From a virus (taxonomy: Duplodnaviria; Caudoviricetes): a stretch of 64,000 nucleotides of DNA. The number at the start of each line of letters is the position of its first letter. Position 1 is the stretch's first letter. The stretch is from the IMG/VR virus record IMGVR_UViG_3300031992_000038, positions 51,874 to 115,873 of that record. One strand, written 5' to 3'. Under the pieces are notes generated by a model that saw only the letters and a list, made by a program, of their open reading frames with translations, did no database searches and was not told the DNA's origin. A program made the translations under genes and the position numbers. Shown piece after piece: positions 22,715-47,368 of this stretch.

Positions 22715-22982
22715 AATCCTTATTTTATATTGTTCAACTTCTGTTCCTTAATCACAACACTTAAAGGTAAGCATTTTATTTGAATTGACCAAATATAAAG
22801 TGTTAAAAATATGTTAAAAGTGTAAGTGTTAAAAATGTTAATTAACTTGCGTATGTGCGGAAAAAAACTTACCTTTCAGTGCCGATAGGGGGAGAGGCTT
22901 ACCCTTGCGTGTGGGCAAAAAAAGTGGGCGCAACCATATCGGTGTGCGCCCTCTCTATCGGTGTGCGGTGCGGCGGTGCTTC

Positions 22983-23414
22983 TCAGTCTTCATTTTCCGC
23001 CTCTTCGTACTCCATATCGGCGACTATGCTCTGAATTTCGTATTTGATACCGAATGTGCCGAATGCAGTGTAGTACCAATCTAAGCACCATTCTTGGAAC
23101 TTTGCGAGGTCTTCCTCGCTTATTGTGGCATTGTCAATGCTCTCTATCACGTCATCGAACTTGCCAAAGGGCTCGACCTCGCTTCTTACAAAGTCCTTAA
23201 TGTAGTCCCAATCCTCTCGGATATTCGCAAAATTGCCAATCATTCTTGTATTCTTGAGGTGGACGTACTTTCTCATATCGTCAACGATTGACTCCGCCCT
23301 AAAGTAGGCAAAATCCTCTGCAATGCTCTCCCACTGCTGATAGTCATCGGCAAGTGCGTCTTTGCACACATTGAGTACGCTCTCATAGACGTTGTCCTTA
23401 TTCAAAAATTCCAT
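22983..23414 (-). CDS. Array cassette gene, acidic hypothetical protein
   Basis: 143 aa, Asp/Glu-rich, flanked by modules. Confidence 0.75.
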   Translation of the reverse strand: MEFLNKDNVYESVLNVCKDALADDYQQWESIAEDFAYFRAESIVDDMRKYVHLKNTRMIGNFANIREDWDYIKDFVRSEVEPFGKFDDVIESIDNATISEEDLAKFQEWCLDWYYTAFGTFGIKYEIQSIVADMEYEEAENED

Positions 23415-23696
23415 ATCCTTTTATTTAAGGGGTTAAACTTGTTGGGAGTGTCAATTCCCTTAACTTGACAACTGAAAGGTAAGTATAATATTTGGATTAC
23501 GCAAGGACTTTAACACAATTAACACATTGATTGATGAAATGTTAAAAACGTTAAAACACTTGTGTATGTGCTGAAAAATGCTTACCTTCAAGTGTCGCAA
23601 GACGGGGAGGCTTACCCTCCCGATAGTCGTTTGTGGGCGACAAAGACCACACCCACCCATAGGGGCGAGCGTGGTGCGGTGCGTTGTTCGGTGGTG

Positions 23697-23972
23697 TTAT
23701 TTTACATCCACCTTGATATATTTGAACTTGAACCCCTTTGGCAGTGTTGTCGTTCCCTCGGGGAGACGTCCGCCCATCAGTTGCGCAATGTAGGCGGTGT
23801 CACCCTTCTTTAGGTGCACCTCAATTCGGTTGCAGTCCACTCCGAGGACAGCGGCGGTGTCTTTGTGTCCGACCGCTGAGACAAGTCCGCTTGGAAGTTT
23901 GTCAACCTCGGTGAAAGTCACTTGTGCGGGGGTGTCAATCATTTGGAGCGAGAAAGCATTCAGAAGATACAT
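23697..23972 (-). CDS. acrIII-1: AcrIII-1/DUF1874 (STIV B116/YddF-like) cA4 ring nuclease
   Basis: MYLLNAFSLQM...SAVGHKDTA...NRIEV.L..GD..YIAQ..GRLPEG matches the family motifs YL.NAFS..M, S.(I/V)GH..T, NR, Q...RL.EG. Confidence 0.8.
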   Translation of the reverse strand: MYLLNAFSLQMIDTPAQVTFTEVDKLPSGLVSAVGHKDTAAVLGVDCNRIEVHLKKGDTAYIAQLMGGRLPEGTTTLPKGFKFKYIKVDVK

Positions 23973-24239
23973 AATATACAATTTATAGATTAAACTTTTT
24001 GGGGTTGTCAATCCCTTAACTTGACAAACGGAAGGTAAGTATAAAATCTGAATTGCACAAGCAAATTAACGTTTTTAACAGTTCTGTAGCAAGTATGTTA
24101 AAAGTGTTAAAGTTCTTGCAAGGTTTGGAAAAAATGCTTACCTTCAAGTGCCACCGCACGGGGAGGCTTACCTTTTCGTGTGGGCAAAAAAAGTGGGCGC
24201 AAACCCCTATCGGTGTGCGCCCCTATCGGTGGTCTATTG

Positions 24240-24476
24240 TTATCGGATGCGCATCACGTGCACACCATTGTAGTCAAAATCGGTGATTGTTTGACCTACT
24301 TGCAGAGCGTTGATACGCTTGAAATCGTCTTGGTCAAGACCCATGCGGTCTGCTTCCTCTTCTGTTGAGAATGATTGTACTACTGCTTCCTCGGTGCACG
24401 CCCAATCCAATCCGCCCTCGACTATTGCGAGGAATGTTTTTTGACCTTGCTTTGTCTTAATTCTCAGTTCTTCCAT
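24240..24476 (-). CDS. Array cassette gene, hypothetical
   Basis: 78-aa ORF with its own promoter. Confidence 0.65.
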   Translation of the reverse strand: MEELRIKTKQGQKTFLAIVEGGLDWACTEEAVVQSFSTEEEADRMGLDQDDFKRINALQVGQTITDFDYNGVHVMRIR

Positions 24477-25175
24477 AATACATTATCTTTAATTGTTACA
24501 CCCGTAAGGTAAGCAAAATAATCGGAACTGACAAATTTTTCGGCAATTATTTTTACCACATTAAGATTTTTTAATAATTGTGTTAAAGTATTGTTAAAAG
24601 TGTGTATGGGTATTGCACAATCCAAAAAATTTACTTACCTTTCGGTACAATCATTAAGATAAGGTTTGTGAATTTTTGTGTGTATTATAGTAATACCGCA
24701 CTTGTCCGAGAGGGATAGGTGCGGTAGTTTTTTGTTTCGGTGCGGTCTGCTGCGATGGGTAAGCCTTCCCGTCTTGCGACACTGAAAGGTAAGGAAAATT
24801 CCCCATATACGCAAGAGTTTTAACGTTTTTAACACTTCATCGTTTAATGTGTTAATTGTGTTAAAGTGCTTGCACAATCCAAATATTATGCTTACCTTTC
24901 GATACAATCGTTAAGATAAGGTTTGTGAACTTATATGTGTTCTTTCCGCACACGTCCGCGATGGATAGGTGCGGTTCTTTTTTTGTCTTGGTGCGGTTTG
25001 CGATGGGTAAGCCTCCCCGTCTTGCGACACTTGAAGGTAAGGAAAATTCCCCATATACACAAGGCTTTTAACACTTTTAACATTTGCACTTTAACAATGT
25101 TAAAGATGTTAATTTGCTTGCATAATCCAAATAAAAGACTTACCTTTCGGTTGTAATCATTAAAGGAAAAAAGAT

Positions 25176-25436
25176 ATGAAAAAGAACATTTATCTTGTAG
25201 TGCATTCGTCATACCTTGACAGTCTCTACACCGAGGTGACAATCCACACTGACTATGAGAAGGCAGTTCGCGCATTCGAGACCGACATCGAGGACATCAA
25301 AGAGTCTACCGATGGAGAAGAAGAGGATGAGTACTATCGCCTTTGTGAATATCCCGATGGGCGGAAGAAGTTCAATTTTTTCGACCCATTCAGCAACCAC
25401 GAATATCGGGTTTCGCTTGAAATCCGTGAATTGTGA
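25176..25436 (+). CDS. Array cassette gene, acidic hypothetical protein
   Basis: Follows module leader. Confidence 0.7.
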   Translation: MKKNIYLVVHSSYLDSLYTEVTIHTDYEKAVRAFETDIEDIKESTDGEEEDEYYRLCEYPDGRKKFNFFDPFSNHEYRVSLEIREL

Positions 25437-25487
25437 GAACGGAGGCGGGTGTCTTGCGGCATCCGCCCATTTATCATTAAGATTGAT

Positions 25488-25763
25488 ATGAAAGAGAAGT
25501 TTAATGCTGAAGAATATTACAACAATGAAATGTGCTTTTATAATGGGGGAGCATTTGTCAGCCTCGAGGAAGTACAACAAATCATTGACTATTGTATCAG
25601 TATCGGATACAATAAGGTATCTTCAGACCAAGAATATTACCAAGTAAAACTGATGGGTAGCAATAAGGACGATATATTATATTTCCAAACAAAGCACGAC
25701 CCATGGAATGATGATTGTCTGTCGTGGCATTGGGATTATGGCAGCAGAAGATGGAGCGAATAA
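25488..25763 (+). CDS. Array gene, hypothetical
   Basis: ATG at 25488 after atcattaagattgat leader. Confidence 0.6.
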   Translation: MKEKFNAEEYYNNEMCFYNGGAFVSLEEVQQIIDYCISIGYNKVSSDQEYYQVKLMGSNKDDILYFQTKHDPWNDDCLSWHWDYGSRRWSE

Positions 25764-26094
25764 TGCGTCTTTATTGGGAACATACTACCGCACCCAACCG
25801 AGAGGTATATCCCGGTAGGGTGTGGCAGTACTCAAATGGGTACAATGGTGGGTGTCTTGTGGCATCCGCTTTTTTTTTTTGCGACCTTTCGCAAGGATAA
25901 GCCTCCCCTTGCTGCGCAATGGAAGGTAAGTGTTTTTTCTGACGTGTGCAAGGCTTTTAACGTTTTTAACACTTCATTCGCAAATATGTTAAAAGTGTTA
26001 ATTTGCTTGCGTGTTTCAAATATTATGCTTACCTTTCGTTTGTCAAGTTAAGGGAATGACAACCCAAGAGTTTAACCATTTAAATAATAAGGAT

Positions 26095-26835
26095 ATGATT
26101 ATTTCGGATACAAAGAACATTGCCAACAAAGTGAAGGAACTCAAGCGTGATTGCCGTCCAAGTTACGGTCTTCGTTTCACCATCGTGGGCGAAGAGACCT
26201 TCAATGAGTTCGCCAAGCACTTTGGCAACGTGAAAGAACCATACGTACATTATTCGATGCCCAAGGCCGTTGCTATGGCTGAGAAGTCCAAGGCGACCGA
26301 GGCAAAGATGGTTACCGCCTACCGCATGGAGATGTACAAAGGCACAGATGGGGAGTGCAGTGCGGACGGCACAAAGTTTATGGCAATAGCATATAAGGGC
26401 GAGTATTATCAGATTATCCCTAACGGCAACGCAAGCAGCAGCCGTTTCAGCATCTTCCCCCTTGAAGACAACCGCGAGTATTATCAGAAGGGAGTAGACC
26501 GCAACGAGGGGCATCCCAACCTTATCGGTGCGCTCACCGACAAAAAGATGTCCGAGTGGGCGGAACACATCCGCAAGTATCAAGCGGAGTACGATGCGAA
26601 GGTAGAGAAGAATGCAGCAGAGACCAACGCAGTAATATCTGCATTCAAGAGCGAGGCTGCCGCCGCCGATTGTGTTTCTGAGTTCGGCAAGAATTGTGGG
26701 ACGATTGAGCGCAATGGCGTGCGCATCAAATACCAAGTGAGAGAGGACGGCCGTGTTTCGGTGGAAATGTGCTTGACCAAGTTCCCACGCACGACTGAAG
26801 AGAAATTGGCATACTTTGCCGCTCTGACGAGATAA
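26095..26835 (+). CDS. Array cassette gene, paralog of 39472-40212
   Basis: Shared AI..(K/N)G..Y.I.P and PN.(I/V)G..T.KKM..WA motifs. Confidence 0.75.
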   Translation: MIISDTKNIANKVKELKRDCRPSYGLRFTIVGEETFNEFAKHFGNVKEPYVHYSMPKAVAMAEKSKATEAKMVTAYRMEMYKGTDGECSADGTKFMAIAYKGEYYQIIPNGNASSSRFSIFPLEDNREYYQKGVDRNEGHPNLIGALTDKKMSEWAEHIRKYQAEYDAKVEKNAAETNAVISAFKSEAAAADCVSEFGKNCGTIERNGVRIKYQVREDGRVSVEMCLTKFPRTTEEKLAYFAALTR

Positions 26836-27187
26836 ATCCTACCATATCCTTATATTCGGTGGACATCGCTTGTTCGGTGTCCGCCTATTTTGCGTTAGTT
26901 CGCTTTTGGAACAATTTTTAGAATTTTCCCTATGGGGATTTTTCTGAATGCCGCCAAATCAGTTCCGTTTTGGAACAATTTTAGCGAGGGTAAGCCTTCC
27001 CGTCTTGCGACATTTGAAGGTAAGCATTTCCGGTGACATACGCAAGAGTTTTAACGTTTTTAACATTTCATCGTTTAACATGTTAATTGTGTTAAAGTCC
27101 TTGCACATTCCAAACATTATGCTTACCTTTCAGATGTCAAGTTAAGGGGGTGACCCCGCAAGTTAAACCATCTAATTTTATACGGAT

Positions 27188-27547
27188 ATGAGCGAGAAGA
27201 TTGATGTAAGAACGAACAAGTGTGGAGAGAACACCACGCACATCTCTTTCAGTGTGGACTACAACAAAGGCGGCAGCAACGTATTTAGCGGTCGCAACGA
27301 GAGCAAAGGGGTTTTTGTGTACGTCACCCTGTGCGAAATCGTTGACAAAGGCGACTATGTTTCACGTGCCTTTGAACCCTTCGACAAGCGCAATTTCAAG
27401 TTTTGCGTTATGCCGCTCGCACGCAACTCGCAGAAGAAGGTTGACGCAGTTCGTGACGTTGTTCGTGCCAATGCGGAGAAGATTGCCGCACTTGTTGAGG
27501 AAGGCGACAAGCAACGTGTTATCGACTTTGTCAAGGGTCTAATTTGA
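27188..27547 (+). CDS. Array cassette gene, hypothetical
   Basis: Single ORF between modules. Confidence 0.75.
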   Translation: MSEKIDVRTNKCGENTTHISFSVDYNKGGSNVFSGRNESKGVFVYVTLCEIVDKGDYVSRAFEPFDKRNFKFCVMPLARNSQKKVDAVRDVVRANAEKIAALVEEGDKQRVIDFVKGLI

Positions 27548-27820
27548 ACCACCAACCAACACCAACCGATAGGGGCGCACACCGATAGGGTTGCGCCCAT
27601 TTCTTTTGCCCTTGCGCGAGGGTAAGCCTCCCCGTCTTGCGACACTTGAAGGTAAGTAAATTTTCCCATATACACAAGTCTTTTAACGTTTTTAACATTT
27701 GCACTTTAACAATGTTAAAGATGTTAATTTACTTGTGTGTCTCAAATATTATGCTTACCTTTCAATCGTCAAGTTAAGGGGAGTGACACCCCACCGAGTT
27801 TAACCTATAATAGCAATGAT

Positions 27821-28210
27821 ATGAAGATTTTTCATTTGGTTTTGCCCACCACGGGCGAGTTTACGAAGGGCAATGTTGACACAGTGACCGCAACCGAATT
27901 GGTTGACAAGTACGACCGATGGCTTGGGGACAAGGTTAGTGATGTGCTTGCTCTTGGGATTGGGCAAAGTCTCACTTATGATGGTGTGATTATCATCTGC
28001 GTGAGTGACAAAGTTGAAACCCACAAGAAGACCTACCGCTTTGATGTGACCTATACTGCAGGGGTTGTCGTTGAGGTAGAGGCGTGCAACATCAAGGAGG
28101 CGAAAGAACTCGCCAAAAAGAAAGCGGAGCGTAATTTGACACTGACACACGAAAACGAGACCACAACAGATGTGTGGGTCGTTGATGTGACTGAGAGAGA
28201 GTTTGATTAA
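27821..28210 (+). CDS. Array cassette gene; N-domain shared with next gene, DpnD/PcfM-like C-domain
   Basis: KTYRFDVTY...VVEVEA.N..EA.ELA. Confidence 0.7.
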   Translation: MKIFHLVLPTTGEFTKGNVDTVTATELVDKYDRWLGDKVSDVLALGIGQSLTYDGVIIICVSDKVETHKKTYRFDVTYTAGVVVEVEACNIKEAKELAKKKAERNLTLTHENETTTDVWVVDVTEREFD

Positions 28211-28475
28211 CCGCACACCCATAGACAGGGCGAGTGCCACACACGGCACCGCCCATTTCTTTTGCCCTTGCGTTGGGTAAGCCTCCCCGTCTTGCGACAC
28301 TGAAAGGTAAGGAAAATTTCCCACATACGCAAGAGTTTTAACGTTTTTAACATTTGTGCTTTAACAACGTTAAAGATGTTAATTTGCTTGTGTAATTCAA
28401 ATAAATTACCTACCTTCCAATCGTCAAGTTAAGGGAATGACAAACCCACCGAGTTTAACCTATAATAGCAATAAG

Positions 28476-28925
28476 ATGAAAACATTTCATTTGGTTCTCC
28501 CGACCACGGGCAATTTTACGAAGGGCAACATTGACACAGTGACCGAGAGCGAATTGGTTGATAAGTACGATCGATGGCTTGGGGACAAGGTTAGTGATGT
28601 GCTTGCCCTTGGGATTGGGCAAAGTCTAATCTACGATAGTGTGATTATCATCTGCGTGAGCGGAAAAGTCGGTTATAAATGGTCGTGCAAGTGCTCTGAT
28701 GGTGGTTACACGGATGAGAGCGATAAGGTCTACAAGACCGAGACAGAGGCATACAACGCAATGCGCGATGCCGCACTGACCAAAATGAAGTGGAACACCG
28801 AGCGAGACGAGGAGGTGAGTGAGTTCGGTTGTGTGACCTATGAGGTCATCTTCAGACCGAACGAAATCATTCACAAGTCCTTCAGCGGCACATACACGTA
28901 CCGCGTTGAACCTTCGACCTATTGA
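28476..28925 (+). CDS. Array cassette gene; N-domain duplicated from 27821, different C-domain
   Basis: First ~62 aa nearly identical to the previous gene. Confidence 0.75.
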   Translation: MKTFHLVLPTTGNFTKGNIDTVTESELVDKYDRWLGDKVSDVLALGIGQSLIYDSVIIICVSGKVGYKWSCKCSDGGYTDESDKVYKTETEAYNAMRDAALTKMKWNTERDEEVSEFGCVTYEVIFRPNEIIHKSFSGTYTYRVEPSTY

Positions 28926-29157
28926 CTTTCGTCAACACCGCAAGGTGGGCGAGTACCACACACGGCACCGCCCATTTCTTTTGCCCTTGCGCGAGGATAA
29001 GCTCCCCCTTGCTGCGCAATGGAAGGTAAGCATTTTTCTTGACGTGTGCAAGCCTTTTAACGTTTTTAACACTTCTGTAGCAAGTATGTTAAAAGTGTTA
29101 ATTTGTTTGCGTGTCTCAGTTTTTTTGCCTACCTTCTGAATATAATCTTCAAGGTAT

Positions 29158-29751
29158 ATGAAAACATACAACACAAAAAAGGAAATTGCCGATGCGGTGC
29201 TGCGGTTCGGCACGTATGGCAAATTATACGCAAAATCCGTTTACAACAAGTGGAACGCGTGGGTGAAAGGTGTGTACTACGACAAGCAGTCCGACACCAT
29301 TTGGGTGGACGTTTACGTGCAAGGTGACGACACCGATACGGACGCAAGCGTACGTTATGAGTCGTTTGTGTCCGATGGCGACTATTGCGGTTCGGATGAA
29401 GGCATTAGGTATCGTCTTAGTCAAGCGGTGCGAGAGGAATTTCTGAAGGGTCTTTATGACACGATAGAGCGTCTCAAGGGCGAGACAGACGAGGATAGGC
29501 GCAAGAAAGAACTGCGGTCGTGGAAGTATACCAACCCTGTGGTTGATCGCTTGTACGACACCATCGGCTTACGGCACAAGCAGTATTTCATGCACAAGTG
29601 CCCCGAGTACACTCGCTACTGCGAGGCCAAACGCGTCCTATCCAAATACATAGAAGACCACATTGACCAAATCGCCAAGTTGGACGAGACCCAAGTCAGT
29701 GAGTTGTATTGGTCGGTAATTTGGGACGCATATTTGGCGGCAAAGGGGTGA
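29158..29751 (+). CDS. Array cassette gene, hypothetical
   Basis: Single ORF between modules. Confidence 0.75.
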   Translation: MKTYNTKKEIADAVLRFGTYGKLYAKSVYNKWNAWVKGVYYDKQSDTIWVDVYVQGDDTDTDASVRYESFVSDGDYCGSDEGIRYRLSQAVREEFLKGLYDTIERLKGETDEDRRKKELRSWKYTNPVVDRLYDTIGLRHKQYFMHKCPEYTRYCEAKRVLSKYIEDHIDQIAKLDETQVSELYWSVIWDAYLAAKG

Positions 29752-29967
29752 TGGGTTTTTAACTTGACAATGCGGGCGCACACCGAACAAGGGTTGCGCC
29801 CATTTTTTGCGACCTTGCGCGAGGGTAAGCCTTCCCGTCTTGCGACACTGAAAGGTAAGCAAAATTCTTCACATACACAAGAACTTTAACACTTTTAACA
29901 CTCACACTTTTAACACATTTTTAACATTAAAAATTTGGTCAATCCAAAAAGTTTTCTTACCTTACAG

Positions 29968-30036
29968 ATGTTGAGAGAGGGATACAACCTCAAAGGGCAA
30001 GGATGAAACCTTGGAGTATATTTTCCATCGCGCCCT
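29968..30036 (+). ncRNA. Candidate structured ncRNA, copy 1 of 3
   Basis: Follows promoter; stems TTGAG/CTCAA, CAAGG/CCTTG, GGAG/TTCC; no ORF. Confidence 0.55.
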
Positions 30037-30289
30037 ATTGTGTAATCTTTAATGTTTCTTTTTTTGTAACATTTTTTTAACACTTAAAATTTGCACATGT
30101 CAGATTTTTTTCTTACCTTCAAGTGCCACCGCACGGGGAGGCTTACCTTGCACAGACGGAAAAAGATTTACATCATTAACATTCTTTAACGGAAAATATT
30201 TGGCCGTCCCAAATATTATGCTTACCTTTCAATCGTCAAGTTAAGGGGGCGACACCCCCACAAGTTAAACCTATTAAAATAATAAGGAT

Positions 30290-30853
30290 ATGGCAACACC
30301 AAATTACCACAAGGCTATGACAAAGCAATACCACGTCATCGAGAGCGAGGATGTGAATGTGTACGACTTGTATGAGCAAATCATGGAATGTGACGGCTTC
30401 GAGCAGTCAAACGTCCACCGCACCCGTCGGGGAGACGTTGTTCTCGGCGAGAAGGAGACTGTAGCACGCTACGGCAAGCGATGCACCTTTGACCTTACAC
30501 TGACAATGCTTGTATCGGTCAACTCGGGGTACTACTTCGGGGCAAACGTGGACTACGAACTATATGCGCACATTGACGGGGGCAGTGATTTCATCCTGTC
30601 ATCCTTCGACACCATCGAGGACGCGGTTGACGCCCTGATGGAGGAGGCATTCGACAACGCCGACTACGATTATGTGTGGTTCAACAAGGGTCTTCAGAAG
30701 ACCCACGAGGAGAGCATCCGCAAGATGTACACCGAAGCCATCGAGAAGGCGATGGAAGAAGGCGAGAAAATCTGCGAGAGCATGGCTGACACGCATCTGC
30801 GCTGCATCGGGGTGTTCAGCAACGGCGAGGCGGTCTACGAGGTTGCAGGCTGA
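30290..30853 (+). CDS. Array cassette gene, acidic hypothetical protein
   Basis: SGYY.GA motif and C-terminal GVFSNGEAVYE. Confidence 0.75.
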   Translation: MATPNYHKAMTKQYHVIESEDVNVYDLYEQIMECDGFEQSNVHRTRRGDVVLGEKETVARYGKRCTFDLTLTMLVSVNSGYYFGANVDYELYAHIDGGSDFILSSFDTIEDAVDALMEEAFDNADYDYVWFNKGLQKTHEESIRKMYTEAIEKAMEEGEKICESMADTHLRCIGVFSNGEAVYEVAG

Positions 30854-31008
30854 CGACAAAGCATCGGGGGCGCACACCGCACCGGATGCGCCCCTACATT
30901 ATACTAAAAGTACTCAAATGAGTACAACATTAACAATTATTAACACGCAAGGTATTGCACATGTCAGAAATTTTGCTTACCTTTGCCACATAACAATTTC
31001 AAAAGATT

Positions 31009-31521
31009 ATGCTAAAAGAAACAAATGCGAAAATCAAGCATGGCGCCGTCATTGATATGTGCGCTACCGGTGCCCACGGCGCAAGCCTGAGAGACCGAAA
31101 GAACCTGTCTTCAGTGACCTTGAAGATGGATGGCGGGCGCACGATGTCGTTCAAGGCCATCCGCCACATGGACGGAGAGCATGACCGCCTTGGCGAGACT
31201 GAGATACTTTTTGAGGACTCGGGCCGAGAGGTGTTCTGCGGAACGCTGACCGAACTTGAGAGCCGTCTCTACAACGTCCGCTATCAATATGAGGGCGAGA
31301 TATACAACCGCGAGGAGTTTGAGGATGTGATCAGGGAACTGCTATGCAGCGGTGACCTGTTCTACAACGACACCCCATTGTTGGACGTTGGTGACGTGAT
31401 AGACGTGGCTGAGAGGGAGCGCAAGTGCTATTTGCAGCATTACGTTGGCGGTCTTGGCGAATGCGCCTACCCTGCAAACCTTTTTGTCAAGGTGGTGACG
31501 CTTGACCGCAAGACACGATAA
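31009..31521 (+). CDS. Array gene, hypothetical
   Basis: Canonical TACCTTTG promoter at ~30978. Confidence 0.7.
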   Translation: MLKETNAKIKHGAVIDMCATGAHGASLRDRKNLSSVTLKMDGGRTMSFKAIRHMDGEHDRLGETEILFEDSGREVFCGTLTELESRLYNVRYQYEGEIYNREEFEDVIRELLCSGDLFYNDTPLLDVGDVIDVAERERKCYLQHYVGGLGECAYPANLFVKVVTLDRKTR

Positions 31522-31808
31522 CGATAAGAGGATTTTTGTGTGTTTTTCATGGCGCCGCGCCCGTCCGCGATGGATAGGTGCGGTTTTCTTTTGCCCTTGC
31601 GCAAGGGTAAGCCTCCCCCTTGCTGCGCAATGGAAGGTAAGCATTTCAGATGACATGTGCAAGGCTTTTAACACTTTTAACCTTTGTGCTTTAACAATGT
31701 TAAAGATGTTAATTTGCTTGCACAACCCAAAAAGTTTACTTACCTTTCGTTTGTCAAGTTAAGGGAATGACACCCCACTAAGTTCAACAATCTAAATCAA
31801 GGAAATAT

Positions 31809-32111
31809 ATGTTTGTTCCTAAGAAGGCAGCCCCTGAGGTTGAGAAATACAAGAAAACAATGTTGCGCGGATGCGCGTTCAGAGTTGACTCGGGTCACGA
31901 TTTCATGGATGTGATTGAGCGGCGAGACATCAACAAATGTGACGCAAAGTATGGTGTAGGTCGAGGCGATTTCAGACGTGTGGAGAAGTACACAGACCAA
32001 TTCACGCAAGCTGTAGAAGAACTGAAACAAGAAGGGTACATCGTCAAGAAAGTTCCTTGCGATTGCAGTCCTGCGTGCCAATACCACGCAAATCTGTATT
32101 ACCTTGCGTAA
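31809..32111 (+). CDS. Array cassette gene, hypothetical
   Basis: Single ORF between modules. Confidence 0.7.
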   Translation: MFVPKKAAPEVEKYKKTMLRGCAFRVDSGHDFMDVIERRDINKCDAKYGVGRGDFRRVEKYTDQFTQAVEELKQEGYIVKKVPCDCSPACQYHANLYYLA

Positions 32112-32456
32112 AACGGCACATAACGGCATCAGACGTTAGGATGGTATAACTAATCGCCTTGGCGGGAAAACGCTCTCACAAGCAAAATGTGGGGCATTTT
32201 CCCGCTATCTGCGTCCAAATATGCACACGGATTTATTTTGCGCCCTTGCGCGATGGGTAAGCCTCTCCGTCTTGCGACACTTGAAGGTAAGGAATTTTCC
32301 TGACATGTGCAAGGCTTTTAACGTTTTTAACATTTCAACCATCGATATGTTAATTGTGTTAAAGTGCTTGCACAATCCAAACATTATGCTTACCTTTCAA
32401 TCGTCAAGTTAAGGGGATGACAACCCCATCAAGTTCAACCATCTAAAAGCAAGAAT

Positions 32457-33143
32457 ATGTCAGCACCAATTAAGACAAAGGGTACCTGCGAGCCGCAGGT
32501 AAGTGAGAAAATCTATAACGCAGTTGTAAGCGCGATTGCGCGCCGCGACGAGGGTGTGTCATCCGTCAAGGTGGACGTGAACCTTGTCGGCCACGGCCTC
32601 CGTCCGTTTGGCGACTACGGACAAGGGGCATACATCGACTTTTCGGTGTCGGTTGAAGGGAAAAAGTTTGACGGACTTGGACGCGTGGAGTTGGCGGAGA
32701 CCGCACGCAAACTGAATGGCATCAAGTCGGCATCGGTTGACGTGGAGAGCAAGGGTCTCTACTTCAGTTACGGGAACTTTGCCCCCGACATGGAGTTCCC
32801 GAGCGTGTTCCGAACATTCGGCAAGCCATGCAAGCAGTTCAAGGAACTGCAAAAACTTGCCGCCCGCAAGGGTCTCACAATTGACGTGAAAGACCTCTAC
32901 AAAGTGCGCTTGTTCGGCAAGCGCGGTGTGTATGACGAGAGCGGGGAGCGCGACTACACCGCCTACAATCCGAGACGTTGCGAGAGCATCATCAGCGGCA
33001 TCAAGGCATGGGGGCGCAAGCGAGTAACGCTCAAGGTGGAGACAGTGGACGATGTCGATGACCTTGAATACTCAATCCGCTACGAGACGGAGTGCTACGG
33101 CTCGCGGTTGAAGACCATCCACGTTGAGCGCAAGACCGCATAG
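32457..33143 (+). CDS. Array cassette gene, hypothetical
   Basis: 228-aa ORF after leader. Confidence 0.75.
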   Translation: MSAPIKTKGTCEPQVSEKIYNAVVSAIARRDEGVSSVKVDVNLVGHGLRPFGDYGQGAYIDFSVSVEGKKFDGLGRVELAETARKLNGIKSASVDVESKGLYFSYGNFAPDMEFPSVFRTFGKPCKQFKELQKLAARKGLTIDVKDLYKVRLFGKRGVYDESGERDYTAYNPRRCESIISGIKAWGRKRVTLKVETVDDVDDLEYSIRYETECYGSRLKTIHVERKTA

Positions 33144-33268
33144 GGTAGTACTCAAATGGGTACAACTGGCGGGTGCAATATCCCGCCCACACTTAAACAT
33201 TTTTTAACACTAAAAATTTGGTTAATTCAATTATTTTACTTACCTTTGTATTGTAAATCATTAAGGAT

Positions 33269-33547
33269 ATGTTAAACTACAACAAAATCATCGACAACGA
33301 GAACTTCATCACAGCTATCAGCAACATCTACGGCCGTTGGTTGGACGAGCAGATGTATGAGAGCGGTGACGACTACAGAGACGTCCTTGTCTCCTTGCTG
33401 AAAAAGTACAATGGCGAGGACATTGACATTACAAATGTCAAGTTCCGCAAAAGGCCATTCGGCATCAAGTTCACCACCCCATGCGACAACAAAGTGTGGC
33501 AACTGAAAGTCACAATGCACACCATAGGCATTCAAAGAATAGGGTAA
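33269..33547 (+). CDS. Array gene, hypothetical
   Basis: RWLDE..YE...DY and KRPFG motifs; TACCTTTG promoter at 33241. Confidence 0.7.
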   Translation: MLNYNKIIDNENFITAISNIYGRWLDEQMYESGDDYRDVLVSLLKKYNGEDIDITNVKFRKRPFGIKFTTPCDNKVWQLKVTMHTIGIQRIG

Positions 33548-33827
33548 GCACGATTTGACTATGGGATTGATGACCGCGCCCGTCCGTGATGGATAGGTGC
33601 GGTTCTTCTTTCACCGCTGACACAAAGGTAAGCCTCCCCTTGCTGCGCAATGGAAGGTAAGCATTTTTCTGCGCATGTGCAAGTCTTTTAACGTTTTTAA
33701 CATTCAATATTTCAATATGTTAAAAGTGTTAATTTGCTTGGCCAATCCAAATATTATGCTTACCTTACGGATGTCAAGTTAAGGGGGCGACACCCCCGCA
33801 AGTTCAACCATCTAATTGTAACGAACA

Positions 33828-34133
33828 ATGAAAGAGAAATTCAATGACTTATCGCTAAAGGTGACTATGGCGAGCCTCGCCCTAAAAGCCAAAGTGTACG
33901 AAGAACTTGAACGCCGCGGGGTGGCGGTGCCCGTCCGTGACGATGACGGAAATCCGTTGCGGTGGACCTATTACCATGAAGGGGATGCGGACATAATAAC
34001 AATCACTGACGTTTGCGCCAATGGCGGTCAGATTATGGTCGGCTTTGAGACTTCGGACGGGACACCGACAGAACTCCCGATTTGGGATTTCATTGACGGG
34101 ATTGATATAATTGACTATATCCAATGGGATTAA
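33828..34133 (+). CDS. Array cassette gene, hypothetical
   Basis: ORF after leader. Confidence 0.7.
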   Translation: MKEKFNDLSLKVTMASLALKAKVYEELERRGVAVPVRDDDGNPLRWTYYHEGDADIITITDVCANGGQIMVGFETSDGTPTELPIWDFIDGIDIIDYIQWD

Positions 34134-34146
34134 AAACGTAAAAGGT

Positions 34147-34725
34147 ATGTACACGATTAAACACAACAACAAGATTAAATACAACGATAAGGAAGGCTCG
34201 GTCGGAGAAAACGGCTTGTTTGCCACAATGGAAGAGGCATGCGCCGAGTTGGAGAAAATGGAGGACCGCCTTATCGCAGAGTTCGGCGAAACCCCATACG
34301 ACTGCTCAGAGGACAGGGACGATGATGAGCGCCTGACTTGGTTCATCCTGCTCAACAACAAGACGCACTCCTCATGCGAGGCGTGGGTGGACGTTGACGA
34401 GCAGACCAAACACGCGGAGAACGTCAACTATCTGAACCATTGCATCGGTATCATGTACAACGGGGAAACCGATAGCGGCACGGAACTTGAGGCATACACG
34501 CCTGCAGGCGAGGACATGATTATCAACCTTGATAAACTGACACGGGCTGAGTTCCTTTCGTGGGTAGACGATTTTGACATCAACGAACGCGTCGTGATGT
34601 GGTGGCCTAACGGACACAAAGCAGAGGGGCAAGGGGTGCCGTTCAACAACATCATGGAGCATTACTTGGACTACCAAAAGTTCCTCAACACAATGCGCCA
34701 AATCGCAGAGGGAATGCCGTATTAG
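34147..34725 (+). CDS. Array gene, acidic hypothetical protein
   Basis: ELEAYTPAGEDMII motif; second gene of cassette. Confidence 0.7.
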   Translation: MYTIKHNNKIKYNDKEGSVGENGLFATMEEACAELEKMEDRLIAEFGETPYDCSEDRDDDERLTWFILLNNKTHSSCEAWVDVDEQTKHAENVNYLNHCIGIMYNGETDSGTELEAYTPAGEDMIINLDKLTRAEFLSWVDDFDINERVVMWWPNGHKAEGQGVPFNNIMEHYLDYQKFLNTMRQIAEGMPY

Positions 34726-34975
34726 GAAAAGCAATTCTATCGTAGTTCCGTGTGCGCTCGCCCACAACAGGGTGGGCGCATACATTTTATCCGCACCGCC
34801 GGCGCGAGGGTAAGCCTCCCCGTCTTGCGACACTTGAAGGTAAGCATTTTCCTCTACGCGTGCAAGGCTTTTAACACTTTTAACACTTCTGTAGCGTATA
34901 TGTTAAAAACGTTAATTTGCTTGTGTAATTCAGATATTATGCTTACCTTTCGTATGTAATCATTAAGGATATGGC

Positions 34976-35146
34976 ATGAAAAAGAAAAAAGACAACACTA
35001 ACATCATCACCGCAATTTTTTGGTGGTTCGGTGTATTGGTCGGAATACCGGCCGCAGCGTTAAGCGCGTTCAAGTTGGACGCCGGTGGATTTCTCATCTT
35101 TGCACTGCTTTCAGTGCCGTGTATATATACTTCGTTTAACCATTAA
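34976..35146 (+). CDS. Small two-TM membrane protein (56 aa, not in the ORF track)
   Basis: MKKKKDNTNIITAIFWWFGVLVGIPAAALSAFKLDAGGFLIFALLSVPCIYTSFNH directly after leader. Confidence 0.6.
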   Translation: MKKKKDNTNIITAIFWWFGVLVGIPAAALSAFKLDAGGFLIFALLSVPCIYTSFNH

Positions 35147-35153
35147 AAAGCAA

Positions 35154-35564
35154 ATGATTATGGGACAGTTTTCGTGGTTCACGCAAGACACACACCACCG
35201 CATCCAAAACGGGCACAAGTTCCGTGTGGTCATGGCGGACAACAATGGCAACAAGTACGTAGAGGATTGTTATGAAGGCTATGGAGTCTTCGGCGGCAAG
35301 GACTATTATGCACTGCTCGCCGAGATGAACGGCCACACGCTCGCAGAGTTCAACGGAGACGAGGAAGCGTTGCGTCTCAAGGGCATTGAACTTGCGTTTG
35401 ACGGGCACCCAGAGGGGAACAACCCCAACGTGCTGCATCCTTCGCTCACCGAGAGCGGGGACTACATGGACGGAACGCCGCCCGAGATTGACCCAAATCA
35501 GGGGTTCGATGACTTTTGGCTGAGACCCTATGAGGGCAACGAGGAGGACGAGGAATACTTGTAA
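35154..35564 (+). CDS. Array gene, hypothetical
   Basis: MGQFSW...YEGYGVFGGKDYY...DPNQG motif set. Confidence 0.75.
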   Translation: MIMGQFSWFTQDTHHRIQNGHKFRVVMADNNGNKYVEDCYEGYGVFGGKDYYALLAEMNGHTLAEFNGDEEALRLKGIELAFDGHPEGNNPNVLHPSLTESGDYMDGTPPEIDPNQGFDDFWLRPYEGNEEDEEYL

Positions 35565-35790
35565 TAACTTGACAATGCGGGCGGATGCCACACACGGCAC
35601 CGCCCATTTCTTTTGCCCAAACGCAAGGGTAAGCCTTCCCGTCTTGCGACACTTGAAGGTAAGGAAAAATCCCCACATGCGCAAGTGTTTTAACGTTTTT
35701 AACATTTCATCAAACAATGTGTTAATTGTGTTAAAGTGCTTGTATAATTCAGATATTATGCTTACCTTTCGGATGTAATCATTAAAGATA

Positions 35791-36045
35791 ATGTATATGG
35801 ACTACCAACAAATAAACGAGATGCTCATGGACGCGTGCCGAGAGCAAATAAAAAAGTTCGATGGCGAGTTAAACCTAACGTCCAACAACTACGGGTTCTG
35901 CACCGCGTGGTTGGAAGACGATGAAGTGTGGTGGGACAAGGACTTAGACCACATGGATAGCGAGATGAGCGAGACTACAGAACTCTCCGCTCTGTTGGAC
36001 ACAATCTTAAAGACCGAAAAGGAACTTGAGGATGAAAAGCAATAG
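35791..36045 (+). CDS. Array cassette gene, acidic hypothetical protein
   Basis: ORF after leader. Confidence 0.65.
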   Translation: MYMDYQQINEMLMDACREQIKKFDGELNLTSNNYGFCTAWLEDDEVWWDKDLDHMDSEMSETTELSALLDTILKTEKELEDEKQ

Positions 36046-36223
36046 GACATACGAAACAGGCTATTCAATGGGATACGATTGGGTGGCCTATGAGGGCGGC
36101 AACCCATCACGCGTTGTGTCCGAACTGCGGGCGAGGGGCGCATCCCCAAGACAACAATGGGGTGTGGCATTTATGCAAGGCGCAAGGGATGCCGCGCAGG
36201 GACTGCCAAGGAAATACAACTAA
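36032..36223 (+). CDS. Array gene, hypothetical
   Basis: Overlaps previous stop. Confidence 0.55.
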   Translation: MKSNRTYETGYSMGYDWVAYEGGNPSRVVSELRARGASPRQQWGVAFMQGARDAAQGLPRKYN

Positions 36224-36511
36224 ACCACGCGACATAGGGATAAATCATGCGTAATTTATAGTTTTGGCCGCCGCACTTGTCCGAGAGGGATAGGTGCGGT
36301 TCTTCTTTCACCGCCGGCACGAGGGTAAGCCTCCCCGTCTTGCGACACTTGAAGGTAAGCATTTTCTGTGACATGCGCAAGTCTTTTAACGTTTTTAACA
36401 CTTCTGTAGTGTATATGTTAAAGATGTTAATTTGCTTGCACAAACCGGAACTTTTACTTACCTTTCGTTCAGAAATCAAGGGATAATCCCAAGATATGAA
36501 AAGCGTCTGTC

Positions 36512-36715
36512 ATGATTATAATAACATTTAGGATAGAAGAAGCGGGAACCTTCGATAAGGTCGCGGTTCATTGCGCTGACAACATCGAGGCGCGATGCGT
36601 CATTGGGTATGTCATTGGGTTACGCAAGGTGTCTAACGTCCGAATGAACCGATGCGGACGATGCGCAAAGGGGACCAAGCATTACACGAAGGACGAGTTC
36701 TTCAGTCGTTACTAA
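36512..36715 (+). CDS. Array cassette gene, hypothetical
   Basis: ORF between promoters. Confidence 0.55.
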   Translation: MIIITFRIEEAGTFDKVAVHCADNIEARCVIGYVIGLRKVSNVRMNRCGRCAKGTKHYTKDEFFSRY

Positions 36716-36794
36716 GTGTTAAAAGTGTTAATTTGCTTGCACAATCCAAATATTATGCTTACCTTTCGTATGTAATCATTAAAGGAAAAATATT

Positions 36795-36992
36795 ATGAGA
36801 GTAACAAACATCCTATGGGACACTGACGGGGAGAGCGTTGACCTCCCAACCGAGGTCGATATTATTGACAACATCGACGAGGACGAGGTGGCCGACTACC
36901 TGTCGGACGAGTACGGATATTTGGTGGAAAGTTTTTTTCTGCCGGAGAAAGAGACTGAGTTTTACGACAATCTGGACAACTGGATTGGATGA
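36795..36992 (+). CDS. Array gene, very acidic small protein
   Basis: NILWDTDGE..DLPTEV...VADYLSDEYGYLVESF. Confidence 0.7.
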   Translation: MRVTNILWDTDGESVDLPTEVDIIDNIDEDEVADYLSDEYGYLVESFFLPEKETEFYDNLDNWIG

Positions 36993-37025
36993 GAGATAAT
37001 TGTTAAACCACAAAAAATCCCAACA

Positions 37026-37433
37026 ATGGAAATGGAAAAAGAACTCAAAATCAACGGCTATCCCGCCTATCAGGCAACCGCCGAGAACATTATGGCCGCA
37101 TACGAGGCCGCCGAGAGTGAGACCGAGAAGGCTGAAATCGCCAAGTACTACATGGAGAGCCGACTCAAGTATGAGGTGTGCCGCAAAGACGAGACCAAGG
37201 ACGAGAACTTCGGCCGCAAGTTCGAAGACTTTGTAAACGGCCCTATGTGCGACCCACGCAAGGTGGCCGACCGAATGGCCCGTGCGCACCGCTACCTCGT
37301 TCAGAAGATGTTCGAGGTCTGCTACGAGTTCATCCGCATCCTCGCAGAGCATTTCGACAAAGGATGGTACGACCCGCGAGACGAATGGGCATGCAAGACC
37401 TCCAAGAAGATTTGGGAGACCATCAACGGCTGA
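37026..37433 (+). CDS. Array gene, hypothetical
   Basis: HRYLVQ...YDPRDEWAC motif. Confidence 0.7.
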   Translation: MEMEKELKINGYPAYQATAENIMAAYEAAESETEKAEIAKYYMESRLKYEVCRKDETKDENFGRKFEDFVNGPMCDPRKVADRMARAHRYLVQKMFEVCYEFIRILAEHFDKGWYDPRDEWACKTSKKIWETING

Positions 37434-37763
37434 CAATATCCTTTTTAACTTGACTGACGTGACAGAGCGGAACCGGCAATGGCCGGTCCGCCCTGTCGGG
37501 ACAGGAGCGGAACCGAAACGAGCGGTCTGCCCTGTCCCACTTTTTTGTGCCCTTGCGCGATGGGTAAGCCTCTCCGTCTTGCGACACTTGAAGGTAAGGA
37601 ATTTTCCTGACATGTGCAAGGCTTTTAACGTTTTTAACATCTCTATGTTGAATATGTTAAAAGTGTTAATTTGCTTGGCCAATCCAAATAAATTACCTAC
37701 CTTCCCATTGTCAAGTTAAGGGAGTGACACCCCGCAAAGTTCAACCCTCTATATAGTCAAGTT

Positions 37764-37949
37764 ATGGAGAACGAAAAGAAAAAAGAATTTATCATAAATT
37801 TCCGTTGCTCGGCGGTCATCGAGGCCGAGAGCGGTCGTGAGGCGATGGAGATTTTTCAGAACATGGACCTCCGCCTGCCGGAGAACGTGGAGTTCACCGA
37901 ATATATCAATGTCTTGGACACGAACACCTTTGAGGAGGTTGAGGTATGA
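37764..37949 (+). CDS. Array cassette gene, DpnD/PcfM-like small protein
   Basis: KEFIINF...VIEAES..EA. Confidence 0.6.
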   Translation: MENEKKKEFIINFRCSAVIEAESGREAMEIFQNMDLRLPENVEFTEYINVLDTNTFEEVEV

Positions 37950-38305
37950 ACTACGACTACACATTTGAACAGGAGTACAAGGACGACAAGCGCAAAGAGA
38001 GTTTTCTGTTCTTCTCGTTGGGTATCGTTCAGGTGCCCTACTACAATAACTCCTACGGCTACCGCACCTACCGGTTCCCACGAACATACAGGGGAGACCG
38101 AATGGTGATTGAGTTCACCGAATACCTCAGGGAGAAGGGTCGCGGGTATGAACTGAACTACATATTCTGTCCCGAGTGGGAGCAGCAGGTCGCAGACACA
38201 GGCCCTCTTCCACCCAAACCGGAAAAGCGCAGTCTGTTCTCACGGATAGCGGGCCTTTTCAAGCGAGAGAAGGAGGTCCCATTGCAGACCACACGGAAGA
38301 TTTGA
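37946..38305 (+). CDS. Array gene, hypothetical
   Basis: ATGA-coupled. Confidence 0.65.
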   Translation: MNYDYTFEQEYKDDKRKESFLFFSLGIVQVPYYNNSYGYRTYRFPRTYRGDRMVIEFTEYLREKGRGYELNYIFCPEWEQQVADTGPLPPKPEKRSLFSRIAGLFKREKEVPLQTTRKI

Positions 38306-38560
38306 GCATACGGGCGGTTGACACATGTCACCGCCCATTTCATTCACCCTTTCGCAAGGGTAAGCCTCCCCGTGCGGTGGCACTTGAAGGTAAGGAATTT
38401 TCCTGACATGTGCAAGGCTTTTAACGTTTTTAACATTTGCACTTTAATAATGTTAAAAGTGTTAATTTGCTTGCATAGTTCAAATTTTATGCTTACCTTT
38501 CGTTTGTCAAGTTAAGGGAATTGACACTCCCACAAAGTTCAACCATCTAAAATCAAGGAT

Positions 38561-39184
38561 ATGGAAACGAAGAAAATATTCAAGTTGGTGTCTGTGACCA
38601 TTAAGGACGGCGCAACAAAGTCGAACTCTCAGGTCTTTGCAAGTCGGCAAGAAGCCGAGGAGCGAATTGACGTGGAGAAAGCCATAGTGAACCGCCGAGG
38701 AGACTACATTGTAACGGAAGACATGGCCATGTCACCCGACCGCGAGACCATCCACATTTGGAAAATCGTTGAAGAGGAGATTGAAATGGGGTATTACCCC
38801 GTGTCGTATGTGACCCGCGGTGTCGTGTTGGTCAAGGCAATTGACGAGTATGATGCCTACGACAAAGTGGGTCAATACCGCATCGCGCCGAACCTGCCCG
38901 ACAACTTTGACGGCACCGTTATCGAACTAACTGTAGAATATGACAGTAGTGACAAAAATGCGGCTGATGACGTCATAAAGGATTGGGGCACGTGCTGCGA
39001 CCTTGACGAGTGCAATAGTGCCTATGAACTCGGCGGCATCAAAACCACCATCCACGACTATGAGGATGACGACAGGAACCATAGTAAGTATTACACAGAC
39101 TTCGATGAGTGGTGGACATCACTCACGCCAGAGAAGCGGCGCAACATCTTCGCCACCATCAACAAATGGAACTATATTGTATAG
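38561..39184 (+). CDS. Array cassette gene, multi-domain hypothetical protein
   Basis: 207-aa ORF between modules. Confidence 0.75.
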   Translation: METKKIFKLVSVTIKDGATKSNSQVFASRQEAEERIDVEKAIVNRRGDYIVTEDMAMSPDRETIHIWKIVEEEIEMGYYPVSYVTRGVVLVKAIDEYDAYDKVGQYRIAPNLPDNFDGTVIELTVEYDSSDKNAADDVIKDWGTCCDLDECNSAYELGGIKTTIHDYEDDDRNHSKYYTDFDEWWTSLTPEKRRNIFATINKWNYIV

Positions 39185-39471
39185 TTCCATCAACAAATGG
39201 AAATAGCGACAACCGCATACAGGGCGAGTGCCACACACGGCACCGCCCGTTTCATTTGCCCACACACAAAGGTAAGCCTCCCCTTGCTGCGCAATGGAAG
39301 GTAAGCAAAATTCTCCACATGTGCAAGCCTTTTAACACTTTTAACACTTCATACATCAATATGTTAAAAAGGTTAATTTGCTTGCACAACCCAGATAAAA
39401 GGCTTACCTTTCAATCGTCAAGTTAAGGGGAGTGACACCCCCGCAAGTCCAACCATCTAAACGATGCAAGT

Positions 39472-40212
39472 ATGATACATTTCGCAAGCAAAACAGAATT
39501 CATCGAAATGACCCGTGCCGCCGAGGCCGAGGCGAGAACCTCCACATTTGCCGCCAAGAAGGGGTATGTGGATGACCTGAACGTCTTGTCTCAGGTTTTC
39601 GGTGAGACCACGAATCCGATACTCCCATACTTTAGCAGTGAAATTGAGAAATTCATGGGGAAGGCCAAGGACGTTGAGTTCGTGAACTACTATGAGTTCA
39701 CGATATATGCGGACATATTCAGAAATGACGGGCATGCACGTCCCGGCACACTCAGTGCAAAAACCGCCATCAAGTGGAATGGTGCGTTGTACGACATATT
39801 CCCCGCCGACAATAACGGAAAGACGTTTGAGTTCGCCATCGCAGGCGATGAGCGAAAGTACCGCCGCTTGCCGGACGGGTACTACACCAACCTCGTCAAG
39901 CCCAACAATGTGGGTTCTATGACCGCCAAGAAGATGACCGCATGGGCGAGTTATCTGACTGACAAAGCAGGTGTCTATGACAAGACGATGAACGAGAGAG
40001 ACCTTAAGGTGAAGCGGTTCGTGTGCCGCTTGCGCGAGCAGTTCGGCGACCTTCCATCAATCGGAGAGCGCAGCGGAAAGGTGGTGATGAATAACCTGAA
40101 ATTGGAGTACCGCGCCGACACTGACGGGATTTTGTCCGCCACATTGGGCATCGTCAAAAATCCGTACATTGCGGAAGAATGCCTTGACACGTTCATTTCA
40201 ATGGTCAAGTAG
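39472..40212 (+). CDS. Array cassette gene, paralog of 26095-26835
   Basis: Shared motifs and the same 246-aa length. Confidence 0.75.
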   Translation: MIHFASKTEFIEMTRAAEAEARTSTFAAKKGYVDDLNVLSQVFGETTNPILPYFSSEIEKFMGKAKDVEFVNYYEFTIYADIFRNDGHARPGTLSAKTAIKWNGALYDIFPADNNGKTFEFAIAGDERKYRRLPDGYYTNLVKPNNVGSMTAKKMTAWASYLTDKAGVYDKTMNERDLKVKRFVCRLREQFGDLPSIGERSGKVVMNNLKLEYRADTDGILSATLGIVKNPYIAEECLDTFISMVK

Positions 40213-40950: not shown

Positions 40951-40962
40951 ATGTGATGCGCT

Positions 40963-46852: not shown

Positions 46853-46858
46853 CACGCC

Positions 46859-47364: not shown

Positions 47365-47368
47365 GGAT

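Follow-up and report, generated by a model that had tools for sequence, protein, structure and literature searches.

Small ORFan genes in the phage DNA analysed here (a stretch of 64,000 nucleotides, hereafter the window, which forms the final 64 kb of an IMG/VR contig of 115.9 kb with a rated completeness of 32%) are separated by repeated intergenic modules, in which a second promoter arm mirrors the gene-facing promoter and is followed by a conserved 30-bp unit. The comparisons presented below place these modules securely among the PeSL-type (promoter-early stem-loop) cassettes, with a promoter of Bacteroidota type, and argue just as securely that the mirrored arm is maintained as a promoter-like site, at which the host polymerase likely binds and starts. 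The cassette class is already known, and the mirrored arm with its unit is what is new. The overall reading that we favour, and that we judge moderately probable, is that the modules are PeSL-type terminator/early-promoter cassettes of a T4-like jumbo phage with an added mirrored promoter, again of Bacteroidota type, whose outward arm would insulate the cassette and/or exert antisense control.

The contig encodes a T4-type portal (PF07230, E=4.9e-78) and the N-domain of a T4-type large terminase, and derives from a T4-like jumbo phage with a probable Bacteroidota host, the host being assigned from the form of the promoters alone. A blastn search with 26.0-33.9 kb of the window against the INPHARED phages returned no match, the window contains no tRNA genes, and neither a sigma factor nor an integrase was found in the 116-kb contig, a weak negative given that the contig spans about a third of the genome. 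Near-identical fragments (L129, L130, L136, L137 and L138; 97.5-99.3% identity), which originate from at least four assemblies and were collected through a metagenome scan and exact-protein look-ups, provided natural variants, among which coding DNA differs by 0.9% (11.6 kb compared). The exact-protein look-ups returned no record for three cassette proteins and, for a fourth, a record without DNA.

Alignment of 29 oriented copies with MAFFT defined the repeat unit as an intergenic module of 190-250 bp that recurs between 22.76 and 50.26 kb of the window. The modules are the spacers between small ORFan genes that run leftward below approximately 24.55 kb and rightward above it, with the gene pair at 24506/24613 as the point where the array truly diverges. 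Between 22 and 51 kb there are about 45 small coding ORFs, and nine of the ten cassette proteins tested belong to no Pfam family. Proteins with a recognizable family comprise a DUF932 protein encoded within a cassette (44274-45365), a DUF7507/DUF11 repeat protein (55052-56779) and a BspA-type leucine-rich-repeat protein (59231-60658). Read in the orientation of the gene, each module consists of a terminator hairpin with its T tract, a short second hairpin, the 30-bp unit and a promoter arm on the opposite strand, four TTAAC/GTTAA boxes flanking a variable 15-nt centre, the gene-strand arm, a conserved leader and the ATG. The unit itself comprises a CTTACC box, a G-run and a mini-hairpin, all on the strand opposite to the gene. 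The first-pass annotation had delimited an example copy at 26989-27135. That element is real and its description accurate, with two TTG-N20-TACCTT arms (27017-27045 on the minus strand, 27101-27129 on the plus strand) and mirrored TTAAC/GTTAA boxes, but the repeat to which it belongs is the far larger module. The array and the features of this focal copy are as follows:

22764..50257, no strand: the whole array, with 28 back-to-back promoter modules and a single genuinely divergent gene pair (24506/24613), defined by arms, spacing and coding strand
26858..26885, plus strand: terminator-like hairpin and T tract after the upstream gene (26056-26835)
26989..26994, minus strand: box 2, a second CTTACC 30 bp downstream of the CTTACC in the outward -7 box
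26995..27001, minus strand: G-run of the unit, GGGAAGG in the focal copy and GGGGAGG in most copies
27002..27013, minus strand: mini-hairpin 12-mer of class A, with loop GCAA and stem GTC/GAC, located where outward transcription is predicted to start
27017..27045, minus strand: outward promoter arm, with the -33 TTG at 27043-27045 and the -7 box CTTACCTT at 27017-27024
27051..27065, minus strand: upstream boxes of the outward arm, TGTTAAAA-N2-GTTAA, at about -43 and -53
27066..27080, no strand: module centre, variable in sequence and fixed in length
27081..27129, plus strand: gene-facing upstream boxes and promoter arm (TTG 27101-27103; CTTACCTT 27122-27129)
27130..27187, plus strand: conserved L1 leader up to the ATG at 27188, with GTCAAGTTAAGGG at the predicted +1 followed by a G/C hairpin and by AAGTTYAACC
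27188..27547, plus strand: focal cassette gene, 119 aa, no Pfam family

Several other copies depart from this layout or differ from their counterparts in the natural variants:

28391..28946, plus strand: whole cassette (unit, both arms, leader, 162-aa gene and terminator), missing from L137 and L138
30091..30228, plus strand: sense-oriented promoter with a class C unit, the gene's own promoter following at 30200
38371..38383, minus strand: hairpin of class C in the window and of class A in L129
44089..44212, no strand: the only module with an inter-arm distance of 95 bp in place of 84, longer by 11 bp or one helical turn
45423..45683, no strand: module with the unit behind both arms (45463 minus, 45547 plus) and then a separate gene promoter (45655 plus), a layout like that of the related phage G001
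46309..46374, minus strand: tandem pair of units (46309/46339)

The promoter arms follow a consensus, TTG-N20-TACCTT, that occurs 72 times in the window against 0.26 occurrences expected by chance. Its spacing is invariant: a -33-type TTG, mostly within CTTG or TTTG, lies exactly 20 nt upstream of the box in 72/72 sites, every one of which reads TAccTT. Back-to-back pairs of the consensus make up 28 intergenic modules, and a further 14 sites are unpaired, including some beyond the limits of the array (8942, 60708, 61830). The box extends into a terminal TG in only five of the 72 sites, none of them in a back-to-back module; these full TAccTTTG boxes, at 8942, 30955, 33218, 60708 and 61830, may mark a second class of promoters differing in strength or timing, whereas module promoters carry C or A at the last position. 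The primary-sigma promoter of Bacteroidota has TTTG at about -33 and TAnnTTTG at -12 to -5 (PMC7366714, PMC9723704). The arms resemble it in the TTG placed 20 nt upstream of a TA-nn-TT box, and the relatives G001, G003, G004 and G007 have the exact TAnnTTTG, their TTG-N20-TACCTTTG corresponding to the published Bacteroidota -33/-7 consensus. They differ from it in that the two free positions are fixed as CC and preceded by CT, in that the final G is replaced by C or A in the modules, and in the phased TTAAC/GTTAA boxes found upstream in this phage. Because of the Bacteroidota geometry, of the exact box in the relatives and of an L1 leader whose sequence conservation in the alignment starts exactly at the predicted +1, the arms are read as sigma-A-type promoters; we infer that they are early promoters for the host sigma factor and that the host belongs to the Bacteroidota. 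The G at -5 of the Bacteroidota consensus is missing from the module promoters, which may therefore need a phage factor. A sigma-70 reading of the arms (TTGCAC-N17-TACCTT) has the right spacing and was rejected because the TACCTTTG of the relatives is closer to the Bacteroidota box. A MotA-box reading of TGCTTAC was also discarded, since TGCTT is present in only part of the arms and no suitable box lies downstream.

The distance between arms is 84 bp in 22 modules, 83 bp in five and 95 bp in one, and the corresponding gap between arms is 55, 54 and 66 bp, with a centre whose sequence varies freely. Such a distance, rigid and helically phased around a freely varying centre, would be expected if the outward arm acted as DNA and not through its RNA, either as a second polymerase site that boosts the neighbouring promoter through shared upstream boxes and divergent supercoiling, or as a decoy for host RNA polymerase. 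The four upstream boxes shared within 55 bp, the approximately 60 strong-looking promoters present in 28 kb and the recurrence of the layout in G001 with one more helical turn are all consistent with a role of this kind. It would, however, leave the G-run, box 2 and the dyad that follow the outward -7 box in 30/30 copies unexplained, and the 14 stand-alone promoters would work without a partner. We regard an action at the DNA level as unlikely.

According to a codon-usage log-likelihood test, only plus-strand ORFs code between 25 and 50 kb and only minus-strand ORFs between 22.3 and 24.5 kb. With coding confined to the gene-side strand, no ORF is served by the outward arm, which points antisense into the upstream terminator and gene. 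The claim that the arm facing away from the gene is always followed by the unit was borne out, as all 30 arms that face no gene run into a 29-30-bp unit, including the previously reported cases of a unit on both arms (45463 minus and 45547 plus) and behind a rightward promoter (30091 plus). Conversely, no unit in the window lacks an outward arm, except for the second copy of one tandem pair. Conservation of the outward arms (n = 30) equals or exceeds that of the gene-facing L1 arms (n = 21), upstream boxes included, and each arm type has its own spacer signature, which indicates that the two types have not simply been homogenized with each other.

The natural variants point to constraint on the same elements. 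Across four near-identical variants, only 2/283 positions differ within the outward-arm boxes, as opposed to 33/309 spacer, between-box and tail positions (Fisher P=6e-8); positions neighbouring the boxes differ in 8-16% of cases, the upstream boxes of the outward arm differ at 1/151 positions, and the gene-facing arms present the same pattern of constraint. The conservation of outward-arm boxes among variants may be due in part to conversion from other modules and not to direct selection. With both arms matching the phage consensus and the Bacteroidota -33/-7 geometry, and with the outward boxes protected among variants, the original description of each module as a back-to-back promoter palindrome stands. 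The changes seen in outward-arm boxes consist of an upstream box at 25081 mutated from TGTTAA to TATTAA in L136/L137 and of one C before TTG.

Comparison with the variants also revealed that modules exchange parts and move. At 38371-38383 the window carries a class C hairpin and L129 a class A hairpin, so that 7 of the 22 mismatches in the contig fall within 13 nt, and more than 100 bp on each side of this switch are 100% identical to L129. The tandem units at 46309/46339 are present as two copies in the window and as a single one in L130. The 556-bp complete cassette at 28391-28946 is missing from L137 and L138, with the junction of the indel located in a terminator/T-tract stretch common to both flanking modules. 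The modules are substrates for cassette gain and loss, and hairpin blocks move by short-patch recombination. The terminators upstream of the units between 22 and 50 kb fall into few repeated sequence families, such as the ...CCACACACGGCACCGCCC... type present in at least six modules, and these families are the source of the homology at which the cassette indel arose. For window positions 44229-45389, four independent public assemblies (L131-L135) place the gene on contigs of about 1.15 kb that start and stop close to where the modules begin; the repeated modules probably disrupt short-read assembly, which would account for the short contigs here. Mobility of this kind raises the question of whether the mirrored arm and unit could be functionless, a by-product of inverted duplication that has spread with the cassettes through recombination and concerted evolution. 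Block switching, the change in unit copy number and the cassette indel are what such an origin would entail, direct CTTACC repeats border the unit, as expected of a slippage product, and related phages do without the mirrored arm. Nevertheless, the outward boxes are conserved while their spacers differ by 8-16%, the arm types retain different spacer signatures, no outward arm has lost its unit even though direct repeats should favour loss, and a phage with only 53% portal identity has the layout too. A by-product without function is regarded as very unlikely.

The 13-mer GGGGAGGCTTACC of the unit (at most two mismatches) was found 33 times in the window against 0.68 expected, approximately 30 of these being true copies between 22.9 and 50.1 kb. 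All 30 outward arms have a box 2, which reads CTTATC in three copies and CTTACC in the others. The spacing of 30 bp between the two CTTACC boxes, which had been described as fixed, holds in 25 copies and is 29 bp in the remaining five. Among the variants, box 2 differs at 1/66 positions, and the G-run and box 2 together at 2/132, against 6/44 in the tail. The 12-mer at the predicted start occurs in four classes:

Class A, GTC-GCAA-GAC: 17 copies
Class B, TTGC-GCA-GCAA: 6 copies
Class C, GTGC-CACC/TGCC-GCAC: 5 copies
Class D, a 2-bp inner stem only: 2 copies (22847 plus, 47751 minus)

In a random 12-mer, a Watson-Crick stem closing at the last base reaches at least 4 bp with a probability of 0.8% and at least 3 bp with a probability of 6%, and the dyads in three of the classes are therefore not attributable to chance. 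The stem variants listed in the first-pass annotation are all present where it placed them, but the covariation that it deduced from them is weak. The class A stem is shifted by 2 nt relative to the stems of classes B and C, so that the three classes pair in different registers; in a fixed register, RNAalifold returned a covariation term of -0.41, with one genuine double change, G:C to U:A, between classes B and C. Since the L129 switch lies between identical flanks, the classes change by block exchange: the hairpin is exchanged among ready-made variants and not altered by stepwise compensation, so that true covariation is doubtful. The dyad is present in classes A, B and C and almost absent from class D. 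The proposal that structure is under selection retains the dyad kept in three of the four classes, which is unlikely to arise by chance, but is weakened by block exchange, by the differing registers and by the weakness of the stems.

In folding predictions, energies of -1.5 to -7 kcal/mol make the inner hairpins marginal, and these hairpins often do not correspond to the minimum-energy fold. In class A the predicted start coincides with the 5' border of the stem; in classes B and C it falls inside the stem, whose 5' strand would be left partly untranscribed by a canonical start, unless transcription starts at a conserved A four nt earlier. When the -7 box is included, a two-tier hairpin forms in every class, more strongly on the outward strand; it would be absent from the outward transcript, because an RNA started at this promoter does not contain the -7 box. 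Of 26 informative copies, 22 gave a better fold for the outward strand than for the gene strand, which is weak evidence in view of the G-rich composition of the outward strand, and one U.G pair, at 45547 plus, is permitted on the outward strand only. Database searches with the unit were mostly negative: Rfam gave no match at E<=1 for 22-52 kb nor at the gathering score for the whole window, the sole match in IMG/VR was due to chance (L009), and metagenome contigs contributed one chance match (L128) and one true near-identical fragment (L129), so that in these two collections the unit sequence is confined to near-identical variants. Translation of a peptide from the GGAGG of the unit was rejected, as no conserved start codon lies 5-10 nt downstream (the next bases are TTG, CTC, ATC or ACG) and antisense ORFs score as non-coding. 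An origin of the unit as a diverged mirror copy of the start of the L1 leader was given no weight, the alignment being suggestive only (P=0.07).

These properties bear directly on the possibility that the outward arm produces a trans-acting small RNA in about 30 copies, with a 5' stem-loop, GGGGAGG and CUUACC, its targets being ribosomes, RNA polymerase or messages of the host or the phage. The promoter and the first 30 nt of the predicted transcript are conserved, the G-run and box 2 are nearly invariant among variants, and both the better folding of the outward strand and the U.G pair tolerated there would suit an RNA. No defined 3' end was found, however: no hairpin with a U tract occurs downstream of the unit in the outward direction, where there is only the reversed upstream terminator preceded by an A tract, and with no terminator after the unit the predicted outward RNA has no defined end. 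Moreover, no Rfam family matches, the stems of 3-4 bp are marginal and in class D almost nonexistent, formal covariation is weak, the strand asymmetry may simply mirror G-rich composition, and G001 does not conserve the unit, its transcripts having a different predicted start. A small RNA of this type is considered unlikely. A third leader type, L3, which was observed at 29935-30090, 47834-47989 and 50983-51142 of the window, is a candidate small RNA or leader element. Its promoter is followed by approximately 120 nt of conserved non-coding sequence with two hairpins and no gene, and then by the next promoter; the first stem varies in length (TTGGGAGA/TCTCCCAA, TTGGGAG/CTCCCAA or TTGAG/CTCAA), and a T-rich tail comes after the second hairpin.

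The two-tier fold on one strand, common to all classes, together with the cassette-like array and the imperfect palindrome, could also be taken as a sign that the unit or palindrome operates as folded single-stranded DNA, either as an attC-like recombination site or as a hairpin promoter of the Frpo/N4 type. Integron attC sites and Frpo do share with the modules an imperfect palindrome associated with gene cassettes or promoter boxes. In contrast to an integron, however, each cassette here has its own promoter and terminator, and no integrase was found in the 116-kb contig (approximately 32% of the genome), where a search for tyrosine recombinases (PF00589) returned no match, a weak negative at this coverage. 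The cassette breakpoint lies in ordinary homology (terminator and T tract) and not in the unit, the arms are complementary at their boxes only, and a T4-like phage, for which a dsDNA lifestyle can be presumed from its T4-type packaging genes and from what is known of the family, is not expected to have the single-stranded entry stage that an Frpo-like promoter would exploit. Both single-stranded alternatives raised in the first-pass annotation are considered extremely unlikely.

Related uncultured jumbo phages carry TTG-N20-TACCTTTG in front of small genes, in G003, G004 and G007 as plain one-way promoter cassettes. In IMG/VR, the back-to-back pattern is present in many copies only in G001, an uncultured jumbo phage of 401 kb whose portal is 53% identical; the approximately 50 other matches are singletons. 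G001 has seven back-to-back pairs with arms 94-95 bp apart, and its outward arms point antisense into coding genes. These outward arms have a common conserved start, GCAGTGGGG..., which is unlike the unit of the window and is followed by variable hairpins, and the gene is served by a separate promoter further on, a layout found in the window at 45463/45547/45655 and at 30091/30200. Since the start differs while the layout is shared, the mirrored promoter recurs at considerable distance and the unit sequence does not. In pairs such as L073 14195-14436, the gene-side arm is followed by about 90 nt of non-coding sequence (GCAGTGGGAAAACAG and a variable hairpin) and then by a second promoter for the gene; both arms of the G001 palindrome therefore lead into non-coding sequence. 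Four tRNA genes lie within the promoter-cassette array of G001 (L073, G001 360-380 kb, positions 6256-6329, 7953-8038, 11669-11743 and 14576-14648, all on the minus strand), and an Rfam search of this array returned only tRNAs.

In the insulation and antisense reading that we favour, the gene-facing promoter would start the conserved leader and serve the cassette gene, and the mirrored promoter faces the upstream terminator and the antisense strand of the upstream gene. The 30-bp unit corresponds to the predicted start region of the outward promoter, with the dyad on the predicted start, followed by the G-run and a partial second -7-like box. Host RNA polymerase would bind, and probably fire, at the outward arm, and either the polymerase or a short antisense RNA over the terminator and the 3' end of the upstream message could insulate the cassette from read-through. 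The antisense RNA and/or the polymerase might also help to clear early messages, and the two divergent promoters may reinforce each other. Insulation or antisense control is favoured because the arm always lies directly behind the terminator, is aimed at it and is phased with its partner. Several observations weigh against this reading: convergent transcription would be costly for upstream gene expression, one-way promoters suffice in closer relatives such as G007, the sequence of the unit is restricted to near-identical variants, and the predicted outward RNA has no terminator after the unit.

Partial precedents exist for such an arrangement. Cis-antisense RNAs can start just downstream of a gene and run over its 3' end, as lambda oop RNA does with respect to cII, and convergent promoters cause transcriptional interference. 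Like the oop promoter, the outward arm is placed after the terminator of a gene and aimed back into it; unlike it, the arm is repeated about 30 times within a mobile cassette, and its predicted antisense RNA lacks a terminator. Sigma-dependent promoter-proximal pausing at a -10-like element takes place at lambda PR', where Q loads. The resemblance here is that part of the -7 box recurs 29-30 bp on in 30/30 copies, within the predicted early transcribed region and on its non-template strand; the differences are that the element is further downstream than in the classical cases, that only CTTACC is copied and that G001 has no such box. By analogy, the unit might constitute a built-in insulator, in which polymerase from the outward arm is held near its promoter by the start-site hairpin and by a sigma-dependent pause at the second -7-like box, head-on behind the terminator, thereby blocking read-through and rendering each cassette transcriptionally autonomous. 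The hairpin classes would then tune or address the parked polymerase, for instance for a phage factor that later releases antisense RNA to shut off early genes. We offer this more specific mechanism only tentatively and give it a small chance of being correct.

PeSL cassettes have been described in the T4-type phages RB49/phi1, T4/PST and KVP40/nt-1 (Arbiol et al. 2010, PMC2839356; Comeau et al. 2014, PMC4122927). The window shares with these systems a T4-type genome, as judged by portal and terminase, a hyperplastic region of small ORFans, and a composite of terminator stem-loop, host-type early promoter and leader that is repeated many times, here on sequence evidence. As in the published cases, the copies differ slightly and recombine, and whole cassettes distinguish close relatives, the breakpoints falling within the element; the cassette indel fits the published descriptions well, the other exchanges more loosely. 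The assignment to the PeSL type follows from this whole-cassette difference, with its breakpoint inside a module, and from the change in unit copy number. The phage departs from the known systems in two respects: its promoter is of the Bacteroidota -33/-7 type and not of the sigma-70 type, and its module of 190-250 bp includes a mirror-image second promoter at a fixed distance with a 30-bp unit behind it. The PeSL papers (PMC2839356, PMC4122927) describe one-way, sigma-70-type elements only and mention no antisense, bidirectional or inverted arrangement.

PeSL cassettes explain the shuffling of accessory genes in T4-type phages, and the same logic appears to operate with Bacteroidota-type promoters in uncultured jumbo phages, where natural variants directly display cassette gain and loss, changes in unit copy number and patch conversion. 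The feature added to this scheme is a backward promoter that appears to be selectively maintained, helically phased with its partner and provided with a conserved start element, and that recurs at 53% portal identity. For these phages, the promoter consensus aids the annotation of early genes. Should the outward arm prove active, the way in which dense arrays of mobile expression cassettes insulate themselves would become a testable question, and the modules would supply compact bidirectional promoter parts for Bacteroidota genetics.
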